Source: an uncultured Candidatus Saccharibacteria bacterium (GTDB lineage Bacteria > Patescibacteriota > Minisyncoccia > Phycocordibacterales > UBA2100). Taken from it: a stretch of 64,000 nucleotides of DNA. The DNA lies in assembly GCA_964362175.1 (NCBI GenBank), contig CAYIDD010000005.1, positions 44-64,043 of the forward strand, written 5' to 3'. Under the pieces are notes generated by a model. The model made no database searches and was not told where the DNA came from. It saw nothing but the letters and a program-made list of their open reading frames with translations. Below, piece after piece: positions 2,403 to 41,371 of the stretch. The position numbers and the translations under genes are program-made. The stretch's first letter is position 1; each line of letters opens with the position of its first letter.

Positions 2403-2428
2403 GGGATCGTTCGGGGATATTTCTTTTT

Positions 2429-2444
2429 GTGACCCTACCGGGAA
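2429..2444. repeat. 16-bp direct repeat (gtgaccctaccgggaa), identical to the 3' end of tRNA-Glu at 7688-7703; putative distal att site of integrated element 1
   Basis: Exact 16-mer match. Lies 27 bp downstream of the folE stop, at the transition into lower-GC DNA. Confidence 0.5.
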
Positions 2445-2987
2445 GCTTCGCGCATCGGTCACGGATAATTTTGCTCCGCAAAATTTCTGCGACCCCGACT
2501 CAGCGACCCTGAGGGTACCCCGCCTCCGTCTTTCGATTCCCGATCGGGACCCTGTAACACCTAAAAACCCGACGACATGCGTCGGGCCTTAAGGTGTTAT
2601 GAGGCCAGTGTACTTGGAATGGAACACCTTGGAAACTATGGTTATTCGATGGAAAGAGGTGTTCGCAACGATGCCCACTGGTTATCTTACCCCCTCCCTT
2701 GAGGCAGCGGTATGAGGACTTTAGGCCCAGGACTCCCGTTTAATATCTACCTTATAGGTAATAGAACGCAGAGATTACCCTCGATCCCGTCGCTAGGTAA
2801 ACTCGCAAAACTCGACTGTCAGAAAATGAAAAAACCCTACTAGGGAAACACTCCAGAAACTCAAGAGGACCCCATGGCGATTTTAGTCATATATAGAGGC
2901 ATAATTTATGCCATATGCAAAAAATAATCCCGAATAAACGGAGTGTTTTCCGAGTAAAAAACCCAGAGTTTTCTTACACAAAAACCC

Positions 2988-5796: not shown

Positions 5797-5988
5797 GTGG
5801 AACAGAGCACCGATGACAAGCTGGCCGAGAGCGCAAGCTCAGAACTTTCTTTTGATGCCTTCAAAAAAGCGCTCGGGTCCGCTGCTCTAAAATACTCGGA
5901 TACGGAAATTGAGCGCATGCGGGCCGTCTGCGATAAGTTTGCGGATGCCTTCTTTGACGGTTGGCTTAAGCGACGAAACGAGCAATAA
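5797..5988 (+). CDS. small acidic hypothetical protein (63 aa) immediately upstream of recombinase 1
   Basis: ORF MEQSTDDKLAESASSEL...; helical and acidic. Position is consistent with a recombination accessory or directionality factor, but this is speculative. Confidence 0.3.
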   Translation: MEQSTDDKLAESASSELSFDAFKKALGSAALKYSDTEIERMRAVCDKFADAFFDGWLKRRNEQ

Positions 5989-6022
5989 TGGGCAGGAAGG
6001 GCTCGACGATTATTACAAAAAC

Positions 6023-7726
6023 ATGGAAAAAAGCACCGAGGGAGAGTATTGCATAATTCACTGTCGAGTGAGTTCAACCAAACAATCTCAGGAGGGTGAG
6101 AGCTTGGATGTGCAAGCGGGCATCTGCCGCGCCATTGCCGTTCAGAATAAATGGCCACTCGCTCATGAGCCGTGGGAAGAGAGCTTCTCAGGGCGTAAAA
6201 GTACTCGGCCAATCTTTGAAGAAGTGTTGGCATTTCTGGATGCACATCCAGGTAAAGTACGCCGCTACATTTTTCGCTCGATTGATCGCTTTACACGCGG
6301 CGGCTCATTCTCATACGAAACGATGAAGCGCGAGCTTACAAAGCGCGGGGTAGCGATGGTGGATAGCTATGGAGTAATTCAAGCTTCAAAAAACACTCTT
6401 GAGGATTTGGGGATTGAGTATGACTGGAGCAGGTACTCACCGAGTGAAATGACAGAGTCGCTTCTCGCGACGAATGCTAAACAGGAGGTTACTGGCATCC
6501 TTACCAGGATGATCGGGCAGTCAATCCGATTAACCAGGCAAGGGTATCGAGCGCGTCGAAGTACAGACGGGTTTAAGAATGAGCGGGTGTTCGTCGAGGG
6601 GAAAAAGAAGGTCATACAGGTTCCCGATAAGGAGCGGGCCCGCTTTTTTATTGCGATGTTTGAATTGCGAGCGCTGGGCCAACTTACAGACCCTGAGATA
6701 GTCGAGAGAGTGAATGCGATGGGATACCGTTCTCCGTATCAAAATAAGTACAATCACGAAAAGACCAAGATCGTCGGGCGGAGAGGCGGAGTTCCGCTGA
6801 CTGTAAAGCAACTCCAGCGCATCATGCGGAATACAATCTATGCTGGAGTCGCATGCGAAAAATGGACAAACTACAAACCAATCCATCAACAGTACGACGG
6901 TCTTGTTACGGTCGAGGTTTTCAATCGAGCCAATAGAGGAGAGTTCGCCATTATGACGGATGAGAGCGCAGAGCTCACAGTCGTTCGCGGCAAATCAAAG
7001 ACGGGCACGGAACGAGTAAGAAATAACCCGCTCTACCCCTTCAAGTTCATTCTGTGTCCTTTGTGCGAGAAACCCAAAACCATGCTTGGCAGCGCACCAC
7101 GCGGCAAGCTGGGTAAAACACATCCCACTTACCACTGCGCTCGTACACACAAGTATTTCGGTATTCCTAAAAAGGACTTTGAGGAGAGTGTGGCGAAGTA
7201 CATCAAGAGTTTGAAGTTCCAACCCGATTTGCTTAATGGCTTGGAGGCAACGTTCCTTAACAAGTATCGTAAACGTGAGAAAGAAATTGTCAGAGCATCA
7301 GGCCAAATACACTCGCACATAGGCGAGCTCGAGGCGCGTCAGGCCTCAAAACTTGAGGCGTTTGAAGCAACAAAGAGTCCCGTGCTCCGAGGAAAGCTGG
7401 AAAGAGAAATAGAAGATCTTGAGGTCCAGATCAAGCAGGCGGGTAAACAACGCCTGAAGATACAGATCACGCGAAATGATATTAAGGCCTTTATGCGAGA
7501 TGCGAAAGCGATAATGGAACACCCCGCTGAAATCCTCCTAAACCCAAAGGATATAAAGGTCCAACAGGAATTATTCGGGTTAGTTTTTGAGAAAATGCCG
7601 ACCTACTCGGAAATTGTTAATGGAACACCTAAATTGTCCTACGCCTTCGCGCTTTCTTCGACATTTACACCAGACAAAAACCAATTGGTGACCCTACCGG
7701 GAATCGAACCCGGATTAACGGCTTGA
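6023..7726 (+). CDS. large serine recombinase (resolvase N-terminal domain + recombinase domain + zinc ribbon + coiled coil)
   Basis: Start at MEKSTEGEYCIIHCRVSSTKQ, where the catalytic Ser lies in the RVSS context. Zinc ribbon CPLC...HCA. The last 38 nt read antisense through tRNA-Glu (tail VTLPGIEPGLTA). Confidence 0.85.
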   Translation: MEKSTEGEYCIIHCRVSSTKQSQEGESLDVQAGICRAIAVQNKWPLAHEPWEESFSGRKSTRPIFEEVLAFLDAHPGKVRRYIFRSIDRFTRGGSFSYETMKRELTKRGVAMVDSYGVIQASKNTLEDLGIEYDWSRYSPSEMTESLLATNAKQEVTGILTRMIGQSIRLTRQGYRARRSTDGFKNERVFVEGKKKVIQVPDKERARFFIAMFELRALGQLTDPEIVERVNAMGYRSPYQNKYNHEKTKIVGRRGGVPLTVKQLQRIMRNTIYAGVACEKWTNYKPIHQQYDGLVTVEVFNRANRGEFAIMTDESAELTVVRGKSKTGTERVRNNPLYPFKFILCPLCEKPKTMLGSAPRGKLGKTHPTYHCARTHKYFGIPKKDFEESVAKYIKSLKFQPDLLNGLEATFLNKYRKREKEIVRASGQIHSHIGELEARQASKLEAFEATKSPVLRGKLEREIEDLEVQIKQAGKQRLKIQITRNDIKAFMRDAKAIMEHPAEILLNPKDIKVQQELFGLVFEKMPTYSEIVNGTPKLSYAFALSSTFTPDKNQLVTLPGIEPGLTA

Positions 7727-7762
7727 AAAGCCGGCGTCCTAACCATTAGACGATAGGGCCAC
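7689..7762 (-). tRNA. tRNA-Glu (anticodon TTC)
   Basis: Hand-folded. Acceptor gtggccc/gggtcac. Anticodon loop ttTTCaa. T-arm ccggg-ttcgatt-cccgg. One c-t mismatch in the anticodon stem. Confidence 0.65.
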
Positions 7763-32894: not shown

Positions 32895-33734
32895 TTGTGG
32901 GGTGCTATGATGTACCCAATGAATCCGAATAAAGCATTGTGGGAGAAAGGAGATTTTACTGAGATCGCGGCCTTCATGCGTCAGTCCGGAGAAACACTCA
33001 TTAAGTCGCTCGGCATAACGCCGCCGCTGCGGGTCTTAGATCTCGGTTGCGGAGACGGCACTACCGCGATTCCTCTAGCCCTCTTGGGGGCTGAAGTTGT
33101 TGGGATCGACATCGCCAAGAACCTCGTCGACGCCGGAAACAAACGCGCTGTCGAGGCAGGTCTCAGCCAACTGACATTTCAAGAAGGTGATGCGTGCAAC
33201 CTGCAAGGAATCAGCGACCACTCATTTGATCTGACCATTTCTATATTCGGCGCCATGTTTGCTCCCAAGCCGTTCGACGTAGCCAAGGAGATGGTCCGTG
33301 TCACAAAACTGGGGGGCCGCATTGTGATGGGTAACTGGATCCCGAACGACCCAACCTCATTCGTGTCGCAATTGCTGAAGATAAGCGCAGCGTTTACGCC
33401 TCCGCCTCCGGAAGGCTTCGTGAGTCCCATGACGTGGGGTGTAGAAACTCACGTCATCGAACGTTTTGGTCAGGCCGGGGTTCCCAAGGAAAAGATATCG
33501 ATGGTCAAGGATACGTACTCCTTCATATCGAAGGACAAAAGCCCCGCAGAATTCGTTGAATTATTGGAACGATTCTATGGTCCGACAATGAACGCCGTCG
33601 AAGCGGCTCAAAAGAATGGAAAAGCGGATGAGCTCCACAGCCAACTTTTGGAGCTGGCGAAAGAGCAGAACAAGAGCACGGACGGCAGCACTTCAATACC
33701 CGCTACCTTCATGAGGGTGACCATTAACCTCTGA
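32895..33734 (+). CDS. class I SAM-dependent methyltransferase
   Basis: 279 aa. Motif I VLDLGCGDGTTAIPLA. Motif post-I VVGIDIA. Confidence 0.75.
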   Translation: MWGAMMYPMNPNKALWEKGDFTEIAAFMRQSGETLIKSLGITPPLRVLDLGCGDGTTAIPLALLGAEVVGIDIAKNLVDAGNKRAVEAGLSQLTFQEGDACNLQGISDHSFDLTISIFGAMFAPKPFDVAKEMVRVTKLGGRIVMGNWIPNDPTSFVSQLLKISAAFTPPPPEGFVSPMTWGVETHVIERFGQAGVPKEKISMVKDTYSFISKDKSPAEFVELLERFYGPTMNAVEAAQKNGKADELHSQLLELAKEQNKSTDGSTSIPATFMRVTINL

Positions 33735-33750
33735 GGCTGATTGAGGATAA

Positions 33751-33963
33751 TGGTGTCGGGTATCGTATTCACGACGGACCTACTTTCGACACTTTCCGAG
33801 CGTGGGGCTTATCTTCGAGCTCAGTAAACAATTCGAGCTTGGAAACTATGATTTAGTCCGCCTAACTATAGACCATTGGAACGCGCTCATCCAAGAAATG
33901 GAACAATGGCGAGGCATTACTAACGGGACAGATTTTGCCTTATCTTCCGAATCTCGCGTTTAA
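33751..33963 (+). pseudogene. start-less fragment homologous to the 3' end of large serine recombinase 2 (C-terminal tail variant)
   Basis: Frame open from the stop at 33748-50, with no start codon. Translation ...VSYSRRTYFRHFPSVGLIFELSKQFELGNYDLVRLTIDHWNALIQEMEQWRGITNGTDFALSSESRV*. Recombinase 2 has ...IAYSRGMGFGIARMGLIFELSKQFELGNYALVRPVGFEPTTVRLRGDCSTN*. Confidence 0.45.
33804..33862. repeat. 59-bp direct repeat (55/59 identical to 40959-41017), left boundary of integrated element 2
   Basis: ggggcttatCttcgagctcagtaaacaattcgagcttggaaaCtatgAtttAgtccgcc versus attR ggggcttatAttcgagctcagtaaacaattcgagcttggaaaTtatgCtttGgtccgcc. 32-bp identical core. The last ~9 nt correspond to the tRNA-Lys 3' end. 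Confidence 0.6.
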
Positions 33964-36448
33964 ACGACTCAGGCAGTTCTATAACTGATAGGTCTACAGT
34001 TGAGAGCCATTGAGTCGCTTGCTCCTCGTTAAGAGAAGGATTGCCAACCATCTTAGACAGTTCTGTGGCTACATGTCTGCTGAAGCCCATATTGATAAAT
34101 GAGACTTGCGTCATTTCTGATACTCCGAACTCAACCCACGTTCTAATATCTGGTATTTGTGCTAACAGTTCAGTTCTACCTGTTTGCTCGAAGAAATATC
34201 GGAGGGTATCTAAATAACACGTGATGTATTTCGCGAATCCAAAACGAATATCGTCTTCTATATTACGCATGGTATCTCGGATAACTACAGGAAGACGAGG
34301 GCTTCTGCCATGCTCCTGTAAATACTTGAAGTAATCCACGATTATCCTTGGCAAGGGGTAGCCGCGCATCCAAACAACCGCTAGCAACGCCTCTCGATAT
34401 GAGCTTATACTTTTTGTGTTTGGAGGTGCGAGATGTGTATTAACTCGACTGACAATTCGGTTGTAATCGCTCACTGCCGTTTGAGCGGCGACAGAAGGCG
34501 GCGGCAACAATTCTTCTACGTTCTCGTGTCCTTGGAAGTAATCATAAAGTCGTTTTACAGCAAGAGGACTAATGCCTGGATTTCGTTGAAAGATTTCCCG
34601 TGGCAACTGGACGTTTTCCCTGATTTTCCCTAACAGACTGATAAGTTCGTCCGAGAATATGCTGCTGTAATCGCCATCTAAGTATTTAAGAAAAAAGTAG
34701 CTCAACGCGTACTCCATATTCGCATCTCGAATATTGGCATCTTCGGCATGCTCGGCGACAAATTCAAGGAATGATGACCCCTCTCCAGTGATTTCAACAA
34801 GTGATTTCTTTATCTCATAACGACGTTCGCCCCAGAGAGGCTTATGCGTCCATTCTTCAGGTTCTATACAGAAAATATTTCCTTGAAAATCTTTGGAGAG
34901 TCTGCCTGCTCGTCCCGCCAAGTTCCAAAAATCCGCTTCTGACATCGGATTGCCACGACCACGAGATGGATTGGTAATGAAAATCGCTTTTGCCGACAGA
35001 TTCACTCCCTCTAGTAAAGTTGATGTGCAGACTAAATATTTAATAGCTCCCTCTCGGAACAATCTTTCAATTTCACGTCTAACCAAAAGCGGCATATTTC
35101 CGTAATGAAAAGCGACACCATAGGGCAATACTTGCGGTAGTGCATAGTGCGGATGAATAAGTCTTTTTGAGAGGTCTATCAACTCATCGAATGACGACTC
35201 ATCCTTTTCAACACCCATTTGTCTCAATTCATCTGCAATGCTTTGTGCGATTCTCTCAGCACTAGCTGCTCCAGATGCATATACCAAATTTCCACCGTCC
35301 TTACTCAGTAAGATTGGTAGCTTGCTACATTTCTTAGCAATTGTACCAAGAGTTTGTTCAAGTACGATTTTTCCTAAAGGAATAGATTGGGTCTTTAAGC
35401 AAAGCGTAATGTCCCATTCTTTGGGTTTACGAGGTACTTTAGAGAGCCAAATGAGGTTTTGGTTTACCGCCACATAATCCGTTAGAATGCTTACGCCCGT
35501 ATCTGAGTTCGATATTCCTAAAAGTATCTCAGGATTTCGGGAGAATGCGCTACAGAAGAGCACTCGCGAGGACGGATTAATACGCTGAACCTGCTCCACT
35601 TTCTCCTGCAGTAAAATACCACGTTGACCATCTCCTATCTTTTGTGCCTCATCAACAATTAGCAGGTCGACGGAATAGTCTGGATTATCCGTGAGAAACC
35701 AATGCAGTCTCTCCTGCGTGAAGACAAAGAGGTGATTTGAGTTCTTGTATTGGACTGGGGGCAATTTCGGGACTGAGCTTATGTAGACATTCTTTTCTAG
35801 ACCATATTCTGTGAGACTTTCATTGAAGCGGTCTTCCACTTCGTTAATAAGAGCACGAGTTGGGACGATATATACGATATGTGATGTTCTATCTGATTCT
35901 GACAAGGCTTTTGCGACAATGAGACTAAGCACGAACGACTTTCCAGCCGATGTCGGCGCGGAAGCACTTACTGTATTCTGCTCTCGTGCGGCAATATAAA
36001 GTTGTCTCTGAAATTTATTCAAATACCTAGTGTCGTTAACAATCTCAACTGTATGCAGTTGGTCGCGCCACATTTTCTCGACGAGAAGAGGACGCGGAAT
36101 GTCCTCCTCATAATTTTCGGGAATGTATTCTTTTTCTATAGCAAGATTAATCGCGGGCGCATTTGTCAGTTTCCCAAAAATAATCGCTGCTGCAACGTGA
36201 TATGACGGGTCAACCGCAGTCGTGAGACAGTATTGTGCGATGCGTAATGCCGCATCCTGACACTCCGCATCGTTTGCTTGCGCTAAAATGCTTCCGCAGA
36301 GAAGCATGTAGTTCCAGTCAATGTTCGGCTGCTGGTGGTCGTCAGAAAATCTTGTTGGCAAACTACCGAGAACGGAGGCATGGAGTATACTGCTAAATTC
36401 GTTTCTGAATTCTTGCAGTCCAAGTATTTTGCGTGCCAATTTGTCCAT
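33920..36448 (-). CDS. superfamily 2 DExH-box helicase (Ski2-like; HamB-like candidate)
   Basis: 842 aa. Motif I APTSAGKS, Ia IVPTRAL, II LLIVDEAQ, VI NLAGRAGR. Characteristic YGVAFHYGNMP...LVCTSTLLEGVNLSA RecA2 region. Confidence 0.8.
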   Translation of the reverse strand: MDKLARKILGLQEFRNEFSSILHASVLGSLPTRFSDDHQQPNIDWNYMLLCGSILAQANDAECQDAALRIAQYCLTTAVDPSYHVAAAIIFGKLTNAPAINLAIEKEYIPENYEEDIPRPLLVEKMWRDQLHTVEIVNDTRYLNKFQRQLYIAAREQNTVSASAPTSAGKSFVLSLIVAKALSESDRTSHIVYIVPTRALINEVEDRFNESLTEYGLEKNVYISSVPKLPPVQYKNSNHLFVFTQERLHWFLTDNPDYSVDLLIVDEAQKIGDGQRGILLQEKVEQVQRINPSSRVLFCSAFSRNPEILLGISNSDTGVSILTDYVAVNQNLIWLSKVPRKPKEWDITLCLKTQSIPLGKIVLEQTLGTIAKKCSKLPILLSKDGGNLVYASGAASAERIAQSIADELRQMGVEKDESSFDELIDLSKRLIHPHYALPQVLPYGVAFHYGNMPLLVRREIERLFREGAIKYLVCTSTLLEGVNLSAKAIFITNPSRGRGNPMSEADFWNLAGRAGRLSKDFQGNIFCIEPEEWTHKPLWGERRYEIKKSLVEITGEGSSFLEFVAEHAEDANIRDANMEYALSYFFLKYLDGDYSSIFSDELISLLGKIRENVQLPREIFQRNPGISPLAVKRLYDYFQGHENVEELLPPPSVAAQTAVSDYNRIVSRVNTHLAPPNTKSISSYREALLAVVWMRGYPLPRIIVDYFKYLQEHGRSPRLPVVIRDTMRNIEDDIRFGFAKYITCYLDTLRYFFEQTGRTELLAQIPDIRTWVEFGVSEMTQVSFINMGFSRHVATELSKMVGNPSLNEEQATQWLSTVDLSVIELPESFKREIRKIRQNLSR

Positions 36449-36457
36449 AAGGCATAC

Positions 36458-37423
36458 TCAACGCTCTAAGGCGCGAGTTAAGGCTTCGCGAAATTTTGCT
36501 ACCGAAGGCAGAGGAAGGATAAATAAGTGTATAACTATGGTCTCAACTTTTTGACTCTTTATTTCGGCATGGATTTTTTCAATCCATACGCTTAGGCTTT
36601 CGACTATGGCCTTTTTAACAGCTTCTACGTTGCCCGTATTTTGGACGGATGGGTAATGTTCGAAATCAAAACCAACGAGCCCAATTCCACGATAATTCAC
36701 TCGATTCGCTAAAGGTGAATCTTTTTTAAGATAACGTATCAGTGCCGACTCCAAATTCTCATCAGCAATATTTTCTGCGAGGTGGTCATGTGCCAACTGC
36801 AAATCTCTTTCTCGGCGTTCTGCGCCACCATCTACAAGAAGATAGGCGGATAAATCTTTAATGCACTCTTTAATGGCTGTTGCGGGATTTTGCTGGAGTT
36901 TTGACTCACACCAATACAGACATAAAATTGGTTCTTTACCCTCGTCATTCTCAATGGACAAGTGAATACCGTCAGAGCCGTGCACGGGCATTTCTGAGTT
37001 TGTCTTGAGAGGCATTTTGCACAGCAGTTGAGGGTACTTGAGGAATTCCTGAGCCATAAGATACAGGAGCAATTCACCACCCTCGCCAGATATACCCGTG
37101 GACTTAAATAACCCCCGTGCTGTCTTTTGTAATGCTGCAACTTTTCGGGTGGTGTTGTGCTTTGTATCGTAAGCTTTTGCTTCTGCGATTTTTGAGCGAG
37201 GAATTGCAAAATCAGCAGCGTTTGTAGCTAGGAAATCTGCCAAATCGTCAATCGGGGGCATGCCGTTCCCGTCCAATTCCAAAACGTAGCAGTGCGATGT
37301 TGCCCTTGTCGCCCCGACAACAACATTTACTTCTATTTCGGAGAAATATCGAGATAATTCAGCCTCACTGGTACTAAGTAAGCCACCCACTTCTCCTTTG
37401 AGGTCGTTGGATGACTTATTCAT
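36458..37423 (-). CDS. hypothetical protein with PD-(D/E)xK-like motif (HamA/DUF1837-like candidate)
   Basis: 321 aa, 9 bp upstream of the helicase. ...VHGSDGIHLSIENDEGKEPILCLYWCESKL... fits D...ExK nuclease spacing. GELLLYLMAQEFL segment. Size and gene order match Hachiman hamA-hamB. Confidence 0.4.
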   Translation of the reverse strand: MNKSSNDLKGEVGGLLSTSEAELSRYFSEIEVNVVVGATRATSHCYVLELDGNGMPPIDDLADFLATNAADFAIPRSKIAEAKAYDTKHNTTRKVAALQKTARGLFKSTGISGEGGELLLYLMAQEFLKYPQLLCKMPLKTNSEMPVHGSDGIHLSIENDEGKEPILCLYWCESKLQQNPATAIKECIKDLSAYLLVDGGAERRERDLQLAHDHLAENIADENLESALIRYLKKDSPLANRVNYRGIGLVGFDFEHYPSVQNTGNVEAVKKAIVESLSVWIEKIHAEIKSQKVETIVIHLFILPLPSVAKFREALTRALER

Positions 37424-37477
37424 GAATAAAGCCTACTCCAAACCACGAATATAAACAAATGGCAACAAAGTCGGCTC

Positions 37478-37648
37478 TCAATCAAATTTCTTTGAGAAAG
37501 TGGCGACGTTTTGTTTCTTTCTGTGAAAATAAACTTCTAAGGCTAACTCGGCCATGTCGTAAAGTGCCTTCCTGAGCTCATCAATTTCTTGGTCAGAGAG
37601 TTTGTTGCTATCGGGTATTAACTCGCGGCATTTTTCTAGAGAAAGCAT
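37478..37648 (-). CDS. small hypothetical helical protein (56 aa)
   Basis: ORF 37478-37732. Start placed at MLSLEKCRELIP to avoid overlap with the upstream gene. Confidence 0.3.
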   Translation of the reverse strand: MLSLEKCRELIPDSNKLSDQEIDELRKALYDMAELALEVYFHRKKQNVATFSKKFD

Positions 37649-37650
37649 AC

Positions 37651-37944
37651 CTATACTGTGAAGAAGACAGAGGCAGAGCCTAAAACAATCAAGATATTCG
37701 CCACCGCGTATATCGTAATTACATGCCACCAATTGTCGCCTGACTTAAGGGATTGGTACGAGGCAATAATTCCGGTAATAGCTGAAACAAGAGCCGTCAG
37801 AATCATCGCGTAGTACGAAATGCCAGCCACGACGATTTTCAGAGCGTCCTTAAGGTACGGCCATTCGTTTACAGACGAGAGAATGGACACGAATAAAATA
37901 CAGAGAGCCAAAGAGAACAAGCTTATTTTTAGGTATTTGTTCAT
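37651..37944 (-). CDS. small membrane protein (3 TM, 97 aa)
   Basis: MNKYLKISLFSLALCILFVSILS... has three hydrophobic helices. Holin-like size and topology, but this is speculative. Confidence 0.45.
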   Translation of the reverse strand: MNKYLKISLFSLALCILFVSILSSVNEWPYLKDALKIVVAGISYYAMILTALVSAITGIIASYQSLKSGDNWWHVITIYAVANILIVLGSASVFFTV

Positions 37945-37974
37945 AAGTCAACGACTAATTAAGGGGCGAGTAAT

Positions 37975-38190
37975 CTAAATTCCCTGAGCGTCGAGAAAGT
38001 CAGGCTTAGCATTATCTTGCTGCTGCTCGTAAGACTTTTCTTCCAAGTGAGCGCAAAGACTCGGATTGCGCGAACAATCTATCACAGTTGGTTTCGCTCT
38101 ATTGCTAGGGTCTTCCAGCAAACCCCCGAAGGTAAACCACAGAATAAAGAGCCCGAAGAGTACGCCTGCTATGAGTTTCAAATTCTCCAT
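37975..38190 (-). CDS. small secreted protein with signal peptide and two Cys
   Basis: 71 aa. MENLKLIAGVLFGLFILWFTFGG signal. Immediately downstream of structured repeat copy B. Confidence 0.45.
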   Translation of the reverse strand: MENLKLIAGVLFGLFILWFTFGGLLEDPSNRAKPTVIDCSRNPSLCAHLEEKSYEQQQDNAKPDFLDAQGI

Positions 38191-38207
38191 AAAAAAACGC
38201 TAGCTAA

Positions 38208-38397
38208 TAATGCTAGCGGGAGTGCAACACTAAACCCCGCGCCAGCTAAGCCTTGCGGCCCCACACCCCTTTCGGGATATGGCTCATGGAAGAGTCGCTG
38301 AACGCGGGGTTCAGTACCTTCCATGAGTCTTTTCGACCATGCCACCAGACGTTGGTGGGTTAGGTCGCGCCCTTACGGGCTGATATTGGGTGTGTAA
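38208..38397. repeat. structured repeat element, copy B (homolog of 4779-4943)
   Basis: Perfect 10-bp stem ctcatggaag (38283-38292) / cttccatgag (38318-38327) encloses ...gctgaacgcggggttcag.... Upstream aaccccgcg is complementary to cgcggggtt. Shares aacactaa(a/g)ccccgcgccagcta, gccttgcggccccacaccc and tattgggtRtgtgtaa blocks with copy A. Confidence 0.6.
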
Positions 38398-38595
38398 AAG
38401 CACTATATCATCACACGGAAAAACACACAGAAAACAGGTGCGTGCAAGGAGGTTTAGGATTATCCAAATGCTTGGATAGAGCCATATAAGGCGTCTGTAG
38501 GTCAAAAAAGGAGGTAGGAGGGGTACGGGGACCAAAACCCTGATTAAAACTACATACCACCGTCCCTCGACAAATTTTATATATATTTTTGTAGG

Positions 38596-38651
38596 TCTTA
38601 ACTTGAAGCCTTAACAGGATATTTAAACGCCATTAACTCAGGCTCTTAAAC
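38596..38651. promoter_or_regulatory. AT-rich region with iteron-like TTAAC-N9-TTAAC repeats upstream of the HTH/recombinase genes of element 2
   Basis: tcTTAACttgaagccTTAACa and atTTAACtcaggctcTTAAAc, about 14 bp apart. Further gcttgacttagagcc nearby. Confidence 0.3.
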
Positions 38652-38892
38652 AAAGCATTCTTTTTGTGCTATATCCTAAAATAGCTTGACTTAGAGCCAT
38701 ATTTTTGATAGGATTAGAGCATAAGATTATTAGCTAATAGGTTCATTTGAAATGGGATGATTTCTCTCGAAAAAACGCGAGAGCTCCTAAATGAAGCATC
38801 ATCTGTACAACTCCAAGATAAAGAAGTTGCGGCATTCCGCGATTCCTGCGCGGCATTAGCTCGTATTTTTGTGGACACGGTTTTAGAAGAAC

Positions 38893-39291
38893 TTGGGAGC
38901 CAACCCAAGGCTAATTAAACACGCAAATATGAGCAAACCAATTACAGGTCTATTCGTTCCAAAAGCAATACTGTTAGATGGTAATTTAGGTTCATCACAA
39001 AAACTGCTTTTTTCGGAGATTCATCACCTTTCTGGAAGTGAAAGAGGATGTTACGCCGGAAATAATCATCTCGGAGAAATGATTGGATTATCTAGCGCAC
39101 AAGTAAGCAGAATTATTTCTGGGTTACGGCGGTCAGGCTATATCCGATGGGAACTCGCTGAAGAAGAAGTGACGCGACGAAGAATGTACTCCACTCTCGA
39201 AAGAGATGACGAGGACGCAGAAGTTAATGATGTAGCAAGGGAATACGCGGATAGGGAGAGGGACTTCGACTTTTCCGATGAGGGGGTATAA
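38893..39291 (+). CDS. small HTH (winged-helix-like) DNA-binding protein with acidic tail (element 2)
   Basis: 132 aa. ...HLGEMIGLSSAQVSRIISGLRRSGYIRWE... looks like helix-turn-helix. Acidic C-terminus DDEDAEVND. Confidence 0.5.
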   Translation: MGANPRLIKHANMSKPITGLFVPKAILLDGNLGSSQKLLFSEIHHLSGSERGCYAGNNHLGEMIGLSSAQVSRIISGLRRSGYIRWELAEEEVTRRRMYSTLERDDEDAEVNDVAREYADRERDFDFSDEGV

Positions 39292-39498
39292 GCAGGACCG
39301 CTCAACGAAGATAATAGTAGAGACAATAGTTAAATAATACTCTCACTACTCCCAGCTTCGCTGGGAACGAACGATAGTTCGTTAGTGGCACTACTAAATC
39401 TTTAGTCTTAACCAACTCGATATTATCTATCCCTGTACAGCTCTACAAACAATGGCCGCGGCTAGGATTATCCAGAAGTGTTATTCTTAAAGTACGTT

Positions 39499-41073
39499 AT
39501 GAAAGCAATCATCTACACTCGTGTCAGCAGCGATGAACAAATCAAAGGCACTTCTCTTGCAGACCAAGAGCGTCGGTGTACTGCCTACTGCGAGGAAAAC
39601 GGATACGAGGTACAGGCTGTGTTTCGCGAGGAAGGCGCGTCAGCAAAAACAGCAGACCGGAAGGAGCTCTTTAGCGCAATGGAGTTCTGTCGTACACACA
39701 AGGGCGAGATAGATTTCTTTGTGGTCTTCAAGCTCGACCGCTTTGCACGGAATGTTTCCGACCACTTCGGCGTCAGGAAAAGTCTCAAAGAGTACGGAGT
39801 TGAGTTGAGGTCTGTGTCGGAGCAATTAGGCGATGAACCGTCTGAGAAGTTTATGGAAGCTGTTATCGCGGCGGCCTCTGAGTACGATAATGGCGTTCGT
39901 ACACAACGAGCCACTAATGGCATGGTGGCAAAGATACGCGAGGGTATATGGCCATGGAAAGCCCCCTTGGGCTATGTTCCCAATCCGAAGCGGGTATTAG
40001 GAGGAAAGAAAAATATGCCTGATGTTCCGGACCCTGCTACTTTCTCGATACTACAAACAGCTTTCAGAGAGTACGCACAGGGTGAACATACTCCAATAAG
40101 TCTTGGACGCAGACTTGATGCGCTTGGATTAGCTGCGATTAGAGGCAAGCAAGCGTCATCTCAGTTCATTCAGCAGTTATTAGTGGAGCGACGCATAAAG
40201 TTTTATGCGGGGAAGCTGATTACAGACCTTAATGGAGAAAATGAGGTGCAGGGCTTACACCAGCCGATGATAACTGAGACCGAATGTGCGAGCATGATTG
40301 GATATATCCATGGCAAGAAAAAGCCAGTTCAACGCCATGCATTAGTTAACCCTAATTTCCCTCTAAAGGGCGGTACAGTCCTTTGTGGCGCATGTACGAA
40401 GCCTCTGACGGGTAGTACAACGCGAGGTCGAAGTGGTTTGCACCCTTACTACCACTGCTACAACAAGCAGTGTGAGATGTACGGAAAGATTACTCAGAAA
40501 GATGTCCTAGAAAACGATTTCCTGACCTTACTAAATAAAGTTGCTCCTTCTGGAAAGTTTATTGCCTATTTCAAGAAAGCCGTGATTGATGAGTGGGAGA
40601 ATCGAGTCGGACAGATAAAGGATGTACACAAGGAATACGAGGAGAGCCGTCGTAAACTTAACGAAAGTCTAGACCGCATAAAACAGCTTCTTGAAGACGG
40701 CACTTACAGCCGCGCAGAGTATCTAGAGCGTAAGCAGAAGATTGAAAACGGATTGATGACAACGGGAATATCTGAGAACGAGTCGCACATTGAACAAATG
40801 GACATTGAGGCATTGCTTACTAAAGCAACAGAGTTCCTTACCTCGTTGGGCGAGCACTGGAAGAAAATGCCACCGACTGTACGGCCAAGATTCCAAAAGC
40901 TGGTCTATCCAGACGGAATTGCTTACTCTCGCGGTATGGGATTTGGAATCGCACGAATGGGGCTTATATTCGAGCTCAGTAAACAATTCGAGCTTGGAAA
41001 TTATGCTTTGGTCCGCCCAGTAGGATTCGAACCTACGACCGTTCGCTTAAGAGGCGACTGCTCTACCAACTGA
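39499..41073 (+). CDS. large serine recombinase (element 2)
   Basis: Start MKAIIYTRVSSDEQ, with the catalytic Ser in the resolvase domain. Zinc ribbon CGACTKPLTG...HCYNKQC. Coiled coil. The last ~65 nt read antisense through tRNA-Lys (tail VGFEPTTVRLRGDCSTN). Confidence 0.85.
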   Translation: MKAIIYTRVSSDEQIKGTSLADQERRCTAYCEENGYEVQAVFREEGASAKTADRKELFSAMEFCRTHKGEIDFFVVFKLDRFARNVSDHFGVRKSLKEYGVELRSVSEQLGDEPSEKFMEAVIAAASEYDNGVRTQRATNGMVAKIREGIWPWKAPLGYVPNPKRVLGGKKNMPDVPDPATFSILQTAFREYAQGEHTPISLGRRLDALGLAAIRGKQASSQFIQQLLVERRIKFYAGKLITDLNGENEVQGLHQPMITETECASMIGYIHGKKKPVQRHALVNPNFPLKGGTVLCGACTKPLTGSTTRGRSGLHPYYHCYNKQCEMYGKITQKDVLENDFLTLLNKVAPSGKFIAYFKKAVIDEWENRVGQIKDVHKEYEESRRKLNESLDRIKQLLEDGTYSRAEYLERKQKIENGLMTTGISENESHIEQMDIEALLTKATEFLTSLGEHWKKMPPTVRPRFQKLVYPDGIAYSRGMGFGIARMGLIFELSKQFELGNYALVRPVGFEPTTVRLRGDCSTN

Positions 41074-41084
41074 GCTATGGGCGG
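41009..41084 (-). tRNA. tRNA-Lys (anticodon CTT), CCA encoded
   Basis: 76 nt. D-arm gctc-agttggtag-agc. Anticodon loop ctCTTaa. T-arm gtagg-ttcgaat-cctac. 3' ACCA present. Confidence 0.8.
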
Positions 41085-41122: not shown

Positions 41123-41140
41123 TGCCGGGGGTGGGACTCG
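41123..41140. repeat. 18-nt duplicate of the 3' end of tRNA-Leu(TAA) (identical to 41289-41306)
   Basis: tgccgggggtgggactcg, exact. Separated from the tRNA by a 148-bp insert with hairpins aattcaatcg...cgattgaatt and gcatcgtgc...gcacgatgc. Confidence 0.5.
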
Positions 41141-41288: not shown

Positions 41289-41371
41289 TGCCGGGGGTGG
41301 GACTCGAACCCACAAACCTGTTAAGGTCAAAGATTTTAAGTCTTCTGCGTAAACCATTCCGCCACCCCGGC
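41289..41371 (-). tRNA. tRNA-Leu (anticodon TAA), class II
   Basis: Acceptor gccgggg/ccccggc. Anticodon stem gaaga/tcttt with loop ctTAAaa. Long variable arm. T-arm gtggg-ttcgagt-cccac. Confidence 0.75.

Follow-up and report, generated by a model that had tools for sequence, protein, structure and literature searches.

The DNA analysed here (the window) is a 64,000-nt stretch of contig CAYIDD010000005.1 from an uncultured Candidatus Saccharibacteria bacterium (assembly GCA_964362175.1, positions 44 to 64,043). At 33803–41017 it contains a 7.2-kb integrative island of low GC content (island 2), which carries Hachiman cargo and was inserted at the 3' end of a tRNA-Lys gene by its own large serine recombinase (LSR). 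We give a probability of about 0.8 to the following reading: the LSR that moves island 2 (rec2) has the element's attachment site (attP) inside its own gene, integration displaces the last 33 codons of that gene, and a recombinase stump at the left edge of the island stems from an earlier island. The original prediction, made from the sequence letters without database searches, had singled out 33751–33963 as a start-less open reading frame (ORF) that holds the left copy of a repeat and encodes a homologue of the rec2 C-terminus, and these features are all present. It offered an attachment site within the gene and the decayed 3' end of an older element as alternatives, whereas each of the two holds for one half of the fragment, the former for 33863–33963 and the latter for 33803–33853.

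Island 2, its recombinase and the displaced tail

Island 2 differs from its surroundings in GC content (~44% between about 33750 and 41000, against about 55% in the window) and is framed by a 60-nt direct repeat (33803–33862 and 40958–41017) that a repeat search found identical at 56/60 positions (93%); by our own estimate, the chance expectation for such a repeat in 10.5 kb is about 1e-29. The right copy (attR, 40958..41017, plus strand) lies inside the rec2 ORF (39478/39499–41073), comprises the recombinase-side arm of attP together with the core, and overlaps the last 9 nt of tRNA-Lys(CTT), namely CCA, the discriminator and 5 acceptor bases. This tRNA (41009..41084, minus strand) is the integration target, and the island now provides its 3' end, CCA included. 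At the left end, the attL core (33854..33862, plus strand) repeats the 3' end of tRNA-Lys (TAGTCCGCC). Identity is unbroken across GTCCGCC (33856–33862 and 41011–41017; tRNA positions 68–74 read antisense), and the crossover must sit within it because mismatches bound the identity there (TAG in the stump, TGG in the island). The displaced copy ends in CTA rather than CCA (33854–33856 versus 41009–41011), as does tRNA-Lys in L002 (11516–11518), the locus of a close relative described below; the island copy brings an encoded CCA, and integration therefore altered whether the CCA of tRNA-Lys is genome-encoded.

By Pfam, an AlphaFold2 (AF2) model and Foldseek, rec2 is a large serine recombinase. 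Its integrated form occupies 39478..41073 on the plus strand and probably starts at ATG 39499, giving 524 aa (531 aa from 39478); a database protein with 100% identity (P0001) is the window's own protein. The serine-nucleophile catalytic domain is recognized as Resolvase (PF00239, E 6.5e-31, residues 10–157), the RVSS motif is invariant in the family alignment, and a Zn_ribbon_recom match of 23 bits falls just below the Pfam cut-off of 25.3. The AF2 model of the reconstructed protein has a mean predicted local distance difference test score (pLDDT) of 81, with long helices at 359–435, and Foldseek returned near full-length matches to the SPbeta, Bxb1 and phiC31 integrases together with a C-terminal fragment of the A118 integrase (E 1e-15 to 1e-9). 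The domains found in rec2 are serine-recombinase domains only, which sets it apart from the tyrosine recombinases of the SSV-type family. Searches by tblastn with rec2 and with rec1, the recombinase of a second island (island 1), disclosed no further serine recombinase in the window.

As the original prediction stated, the chromosomal gene ends in a tail encoded antisense to tRNA-Lys: the protein terminates in PVGFEPTTVRLRGDCSTN, its last 18 residues are antisense to the tRNA (41009–41084), and its stop codon lies in the antisense D-arm. At the opposite end of the island, a frame preceded by TAA (33748–33750) is open from 33751 to TAA at 33961–33963 (translation WCRVSYSRRTYFRHFPSVGLIFELSKQFELGNYDLVRLTIDHWNALIQEMEQWRGITNGTDFALSSESRV). 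The left repeat copy reads VGLIFELSKQFELGNYDLVR in this frame and is followed by a private tail (LTIDHWNALIQEMEQWRGITNGTDFALSSESRV, then stop) of 33 residues, not the 20 first counted. This tail (33863..33963, plus strand) is, as judged from sequence comparison, the native C-terminus of rec2, cut off by integration. It is recognized by a profile hidden Markov model (HMM) built from the tails of 32 rec2 homologues (E 3.4e-5), and its residues LVR-LTIDH-WNALIQEMEQW fit the family motif LVx-x5-WNxxIxE[LM]xxW with the same spacing. Joining 39478..41017 to 33863..33963 is in frame and yields a protein of 546 aa, the first tail codon (CTA) beginning at 33862, the last base of the core. The original prediction had proposed translating such a joined ORF, with 39499–41000 linked to 33846–33963; the idea of the join survives, and its precise ends do not.

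The manner in which the tail has changed is informative. Over the first 16 codons, the window differs from L002 by 7 synonymous and 2 conservative substitutions (H/D, M/L), and the two tails diverge freely past the second tryptophan. Such mostly synonymous change therefore points to a translated, selected peptide and not merely to a protein-binding DNA arm. The tail DNA doubles as the far arm of attP. In the attP of phiC31, contacts of the recombinase and zinc-ribbon domains cover about ±4–27 bp around the centre (10.1101/2025.05.02.651858); if the same holds here, the first ~25 nt of tail-coding DNA would also belong to that arm. Dyad symmetry of the reconstructed attP is weak, too weak to place the crossover. 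At its other end the tail meets the cargo, its last 44 nt overlapping the 3' end of hamB on the opposite strand. In the AF2 model, the tail forms a terminal helix (residues 509–545) after the last zinc-ribbon strands and a short helix. Since this helix lies beyond the zinc-ribbon domain, integrated rec2 keeps all known LSR domains and is short of the terminal helix only.

On this evidence attP lies inside the rec2 gene, about 33 codons before its stop. Integration parts the gene body (39499–41017, extended by 18 tRNA-encoded residues) from the native last 33 codons, which are left 7.2 kb away at attL. The predicted joined attP reads ATGCTTTGGTCCGCC directly followed by TAACTATAGACC; its longer form contains GGAATCGCACGAATGGGGCTTATATTCGAG and, across the junction, TTTGGTCCGCC followed by TAACTATAGACCATTGGAACGC. 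Excision is predicted to restore the target as 33803–33862 joined to CAGTAGGATTCGAACC. As reconstructed, attP is intragenic, with integrated and circular forms encoding different proteins. Full-length enzyme would then come from the excised circle only, or from a copy beside another island's left end, and the chromosomal copy would give a tail-swapped enzyme, its gene converging at the 3' end on an expressed tRNA. Most likely, recombinase activity or expression would change with the state of the element, an integration-dependent switch that may stabilize the island or bias its direction. It is conceivable, if on balance doubtful, that the C-terminal helix is itself a built-in directionality or commitment switch throughout a large family of bacterial serine recombinases, such that full-length enzyme from the circle integrates and is then changed or silenced by the tRNA-antisense swap and by the placing of the gene's 3' end antisense to a tRNA. 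Were this true, direction would be controlled without a separate directionality factor, and rec2 would correspond, as a bacterial enzyme of the serine type, to the archaeal 'suicidal' integrases.

Island 1 and the recombinase family

The window holds a replicate of this arrangement. The rec1 gene of island 1 (5909..7726, plus strand in the integrated form) encodes an LSR only about 22% identical to rec2, and, as had been noted before, it terminates inside the antisense strand of tRNA-Glu (7686–7760, minus strand), the target of island 1, with the tail IEPGLTA. Its displaced native tail (GVMRPVYLEWNTLETMVIRWKEVFATMPTGYLTPSLEAAV) lies at 2593..2715 on the plus strand (rec1-type tail HMM, E 3.5e-9), and the rec1-type profile has this single match in the window, on the plus strand at 2602. 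The core consists of 3 nt, TGA, at 2600–2602 matching 7689–7691. The joined rec1 ORF aligns throughout with uninterrupted homologues. Contig L210 (72% amino-acid identity) has an uninterrupted attP whose DNA is nearly identical to the junction rebuilt from the two ends of island 1. Fragment and full gene, which the original prediction had suggested might be contiguous in other genomes, are thus found together for island 1; for rec2, no close contiguous relative was found. Among rec1 homologues, 68 have tRNA-type ends and 38 a tail like LVSPVYLDWNTLETMVLKWK. A helix of the form WN..[IL]..[LV]..W is conserved at this position in both subfamilies, only about 22% identical to each other.

A 19-nt repeat (2426–2444 and 7685–7703) was considered as the attL of island 1 and rejected, the true junction being at 2600–2602, where the tail starts. 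The left copy, 2426–2444, is an orphan tRNA-Glu 3'-end piece 156 nt left of that junction and is probably debris of an earlier insertion at tRNA-Glu.

The rec2 family has hundreds of database matches, mostly in Patescibacteria and also in other phyla. We compared the C-termini of the 120 best rec2 homologues (43–69% identity apart from P0001; mostly Patescibacteria). Antisense-tRNA ends predominate (74 proteins, ..LVDPxGFEPxT..STN, such as LVDPSGFEPLTSSLQMRRSTN), and about a quarter (32) carry a conserved own tail, LVx-x5-WNQIIxELxxWQxL. The comparison, which the original prediction had recommended, places the window tail in this own-tail class. Loci were then fetched from species-representative genomes and searched in six frames with the tail profile. 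The stop codon of most full-length family genes falls in a tRNA gene read antisense (Ala, Ile, Met, Glu, Lys, Asn, Leu, Arg or His). Start-less tail ORFs were found solely on the recombinase strand, with no minus-strand match in the fetched loci. Ten of these far-end tails lie 3.6–10 kb upstream of a mapped tRNA end (L012, L023, L024, L025, L027, L029, L031, L034, L038 and L049), and upstream tails are present in L030 and L048 as well. In L027, L029, L034, L049 and L002, the tail comes, in frame, directly after 7–17 nt that repeat the 3' end of the tRNA (TGGT and the first acceptor bases).

The closest relative of rec2 (69% amino-acid identity) was recovered as loci L001–L003, from three samples, at the same tRNA-Lys in a syntenic genome. 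In L002, its tail (LTIDDWNALIQELEQW) stands right after the core GTCCGCC, with no recombinase-like sequence to the left of the core. Directly after the stop codon of this displaced tail lies a tRNA-Leu 3' fragment (L002 5313–5335, GAGGTGGGACTCGAACCCACACG), which may be a relic of another attachment site within that island. Cores in the relatives, island 1 included, span 3–17 nt; the 60-nt repeat of the window is read as core plus relic.

Stacking of islands is seen in L209, where the chromosomal recombinase reads into a foreign tail and the canonical tail that belongs to it sits 8.3 kb upstream (E 5e-11); the locus is a recombinase–core–tail junction between two tandem islands. Directly after uninterrupted genes in L004 (11623–11700, ..YWNQTVAELQ..) and L008 (11664–11800, ..CNKIITELKHWQKW..), we also observed a second, degenerate tail-like start-less ORF, which suggests stacked left-end relics of successive islands.

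The left stump and competing explanations

The segment 33803..33853 (plus strand; it encodes GLIFELSKQFELGNYD) is the non-tRNA part of the 60-nt repeat and a copy of the attP arm on the recombinase-gene side of the core. Over its 51 nt it is 92% identical to the 3' end of rec2, compared with 80% for the nearest known relative; three of the four differences within the 60-nt repeat are synonymous, and where the island has TGG (CCA) the stump has TAG, as does L002. No recombinase-like sequence was found to the left of the attL core in L002 or in five other islands with clear cores, which places 33803–33853 outside the general mechanism. We regard it as what remains of the recombinase 3' end of a previous occupant. 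That earlier island, a close relation of the present one, would have sat in tandem at the same tRNA-Lys and would later have been deleted save for this stump, and such loss of all but the left island's end would have produced the ORF seen today. On that origin of the stump, the start-less ORF is a chimera of old stump, core and the tail of the present island. For 33803–33853, the account that fits best is tandem occupancy with subsequent deletion.

Further upstream, the in-frame stretch 33751..33801 (plus strand, start-less; WCRVSYSRRTYFRHFPS) scores 2.0 bits against the family profile, a level reached by 283 of 20000 random window peptides (p about 0.014), and DNA similarity upstream of 33803 is not significant (p about 0.1). 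The protein similarity over about 9 residues in this region, which had been taken to favour homology by descent, is therefore not well supported. An apparent tblastn extension of the stump into 33568–33750 was discarded as spurious, its alignment crossing stop codons. The stretch may be a further decayed piece of the older recombinase stump, or unrelated DNA.

Several observations weigh against the reading that we propose. Neither a circular junction nor an empty site for island 2 was found among the sequences searched. A metagenome scan for empty sites with the flanking methyltransferase yielded 80 loci, none of them syntenic, and this gene is unusable as an anchor because it seems to be mobile itself. 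A search with the joined 70-aa C-terminus of rec2 returned no close contiguous relative. Terminal overlap, a sign of circularity, was absent from six named loci, five of them whole-contig (L210, L208, L006, L003 and L012), and from the other fetched loci. Uninterrupted genes are also present on long chromosomal contigs that lack a tRNA within 10 kb (L004, L005 and L008); together with their defence cargo, these probably represent the tandem situation of L209, with downstream ends outside the fetched flanks. The fall from 93% identity to background at 33803 is abrupt, which is atypical of a simple decayed homologue, and the sharp boundary therefore calls for either a deletion end point or an ancestor of mosaic make-up. 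Finally, the tail helix is modelled with only moderate confidence (pLDDT 54–68), and many different tRNA-encoded and foreign tails are tolerated, as would be expected of a dispensable tail.

The variety of tolerated tails makes neutral overlap a serious rival: the architecture would be as described and the tail swap functionless, attP overlapping a dispensable extension for which any downstream stop serves. Integrated copies bear tRNA-encoded tails of varied length, tandem copies use foreign tails, AF2 confidence in the tail is modest, and the authors of the Dehalococcoides study discussed below put forward the same explanation as the trivial one (PMC3146451). We hold this to be a substantial possibility, if somewhat short of an even chance, as the WN..[IL]..[LV]..W helix is kept across the two distant subfamilies and the predominance of synonymous over conservative changes (7 versus 2) argues for selection on the peptide and not on the DNA site alone. 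A different challenge concerns ownership of the tail. The whole of 33751–33963 could be the 3' end, now decayed, of a homologous older element, its tail foreign to the present island and never to be rejoined. The left part does resemble a recombinase stump, and orphan tRNA 3'-end pieces in the window (2426–2444; 41123–41140) demonstrate that old insertions leave debris. We consider this explanation very improbable for the tail: L002 has the same tail directly after its core with no stump, at least 10 other islands carry far-end tails that are in frame and on the recombinase strand, the codon changes are mostly synonymous, and the circle would unite a conserved tail with the conserved helix-turn-helix (HTH)–recombinase module in one block. 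The older-element proposal in the original prediction thus applies to 33803–33853, which has no equivalent in the family and for which the tandem L209 offers a parallel, and not to the tail. Conversely, its proposal of an attachment site in the recombinase 3' end applies to 33863–33963, on the grounds of motif, in-frame join, synonymous change and far-end tails, and not to 33803–33853.

Two further explanations bear on the stump. It could derive from the same element, island 2 having formed a dimer or inserted a second copy in tandem, with the left copy then deleted except for its last 51 nt. This would suit both the sharp boundary at 33803 and an identity (93%) above the 80% to the nearest known relative; yet the repeat copies differ at four of 60 nt, three times synonymously, which suggests that a working gene diverged in a separate lineage, and the TAG of the stump is shared with L002 and not with the island (TGG, CCA), making a same-element origin unlikely. 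Still less probable is that the 60-nt repeat is plain attachment identity, the native flank of tRNA-Lys having already matched over 51 nt with no older element involved. Long attachment identities are common for tRNA-targeting islands generally, and the repeat stops exactly where the tail starts. Cores in this family, however, span 7–17 nt, LSR sites are short (roughly ±27 bp) with little identity between attB (the target site) and attP (10.1101/2025.05.02.651858), and a 51-nt match that follows the coding frame, with 3/4 differences synonymous, indicates a gene fragment and not a tRNA flank.

Known systems, cargo and neighbouring features

Large serine integrases are simple, strictly directional enzymes with a separate reversal factor and are leading tools of genome engineering. 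In the textbook cases, the integrase ORF does not contain attP, and direction is imposed by a separate recombination directionality factor (RDF). With the integrases of phiC31, Bxb1, A118 and SPbeta, rec2 shares domain architecture and fold, and short attachment sites may be a further likeness; it differs from them in that the attP of island 2 is intragenic. No RDF candidate was identified in island 2. Viral, phage and plasmid collections returned only distant LSRs (at most 38% identity, none covering 80% of the query), and the rec2 family is therefore not a known phage or plasmid integrase. The literature searched gave no account of this family or of the feature in Patescibacteria, and papers on tycheposons and marine satellites held nothing relevant as precedent.

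The system closest in description is DsiB of Dehalococcoides. The dsiB gene always overlaps an attachment site at its 3' end and finds its stop codon in ssrA or in an adjacent island, and DsiB was proposed to be perhaps fully functional only on the circle or beside an island that supplies the 3' fragment (McMurdie et al. 2011, PMC3146451). Compared by description, DsiB is alike in being an LSR of ~540 aa at an island edge, with a 3' end overlapping the attachment site and tandem stacking (PMC3146451). It targets the tmRNA gene ssrA, with a crossover in the T-loop and a 20-bp repeat, whereas many tRNAs including Lys and Glu are targeted here through acceptor-end cores of 3–17 nt. The six-gene DsiB module comprises DsiA, which is a second, small serine recombinase, and four further genes. 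None of these was seen in island 2, where only the HTH neighbour is conserved. DsiB C-termini looked divergent in the 2011 study, whereas a conserved displaced tail is identifiable in the present family.

SSV-type tyrosine integrases also have attP within their gene, which is split by integration at a tRNA and restored by excision (PMC8371274). The likeness to them drawn in the original prediction is apt as to an attP inside the recombinase's own gene and remains an analogy only, since rec2 is a serine enzyme losing just its last ~33 residues. SSV-type genes are fragmented and their excision is thought to need an intact copy, whereas bacterial rec2 keeps its catalytic and DNA-binding domains. 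A 2021 review describes recombinases that interrupt the gene encoding them as exclusively archaeal (PMC8371274), a statement that our findings contradict; they also lend sequence-level support to the 2011 Dehalococcoides suggestion. Self-split recombinases are thus known but little studied, and what is new here is a large bacterial serine-recombinase family, represented twice in one window.

The integration-dependent immunity of mycobacteriophage BPs serves as a switch. In BPs and its relatives, attP lies within a phage gene and integration alters the 3' end of that gene's product (PMC4557955). The gene affected there is the repressor and the integrase is a tyrosine enzyme, whereas in island 2 the recombinase itself is affected. 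With every integration rewriting the C-terminus of the enzyme, this large and uncharacterised family offers a natural experiment on how the zinc-ribbon end relates to activity and direction. Gene callers assign spurious tRNA-encoded ends to these recombinases and overlook the true C-terminus, and the displaced tail precisely marks an island's far boundary.

The cargo of island 2 consists of a HamB-like Hachiman helicase of 842 aa (33920..36448, minus strand; Pfam DEAD 1.9e-19, Helicase_C) and HamA (36458..37423, minus strand; PF08878, E 4.7e-55); HamA beside the superfamily-2 helicase HamB identifies the pair as a Hachiman system. Just upstream of rec2, within the conserved integration module, lies the gene of an HTH protein (38893..39291, plus strand; HTH_36). 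The DNA around the 5' end of this gene (38810–38979) is conserved in the L002 element, where a 136-aa HTH_36 gene occupies the equivalent position. In other phyla, relatives of rec2 precede Hachiman, CBASS and type I restriction-modification genes (L004 13777–17294; L005 11677–21587), and the family seems to serve commonly as a vehicle of defence islands. Defence systems, Hachiman here and Hachiman, CBASS and type I restriction-modification with the relatives, are thereby carried where mobile elements are poorly charted.

A class I methyltransferase gene (32895–33734) adjoins the fragment on its left. Copies with 76–92% protein identity occur on 80 metagenome contigs in unrelated contexts and, where a tRNA was detected (a minority of the loci), often abut it; across the 80 loci, DNA similarity ends at the gene borders, at the latest at 33744. 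In its behaviour the gene resembles a hopping single-gene cassette, and it may have been left behind as cargo of the older island. As a whole, the window has the look of a chromosome of Patescibacteria (candidate phyla radiation, CPR): it encodes small membrane proteins resembling type IV secretion system (T4SS) pilins, and its closest homologues and loci belong to Kaiserbacteria, Parcubacteria and other Patescibacteria. Between tRNA-Lys and tRNA-Leu(TAA), 166 nt downstream of the latter, lies an exact 18-nt copy of the tRNA-Leu 3' end (41123–41140, matching 41289–41306), which has the appearance of a footprint left at a third tRNA by an island since lost.

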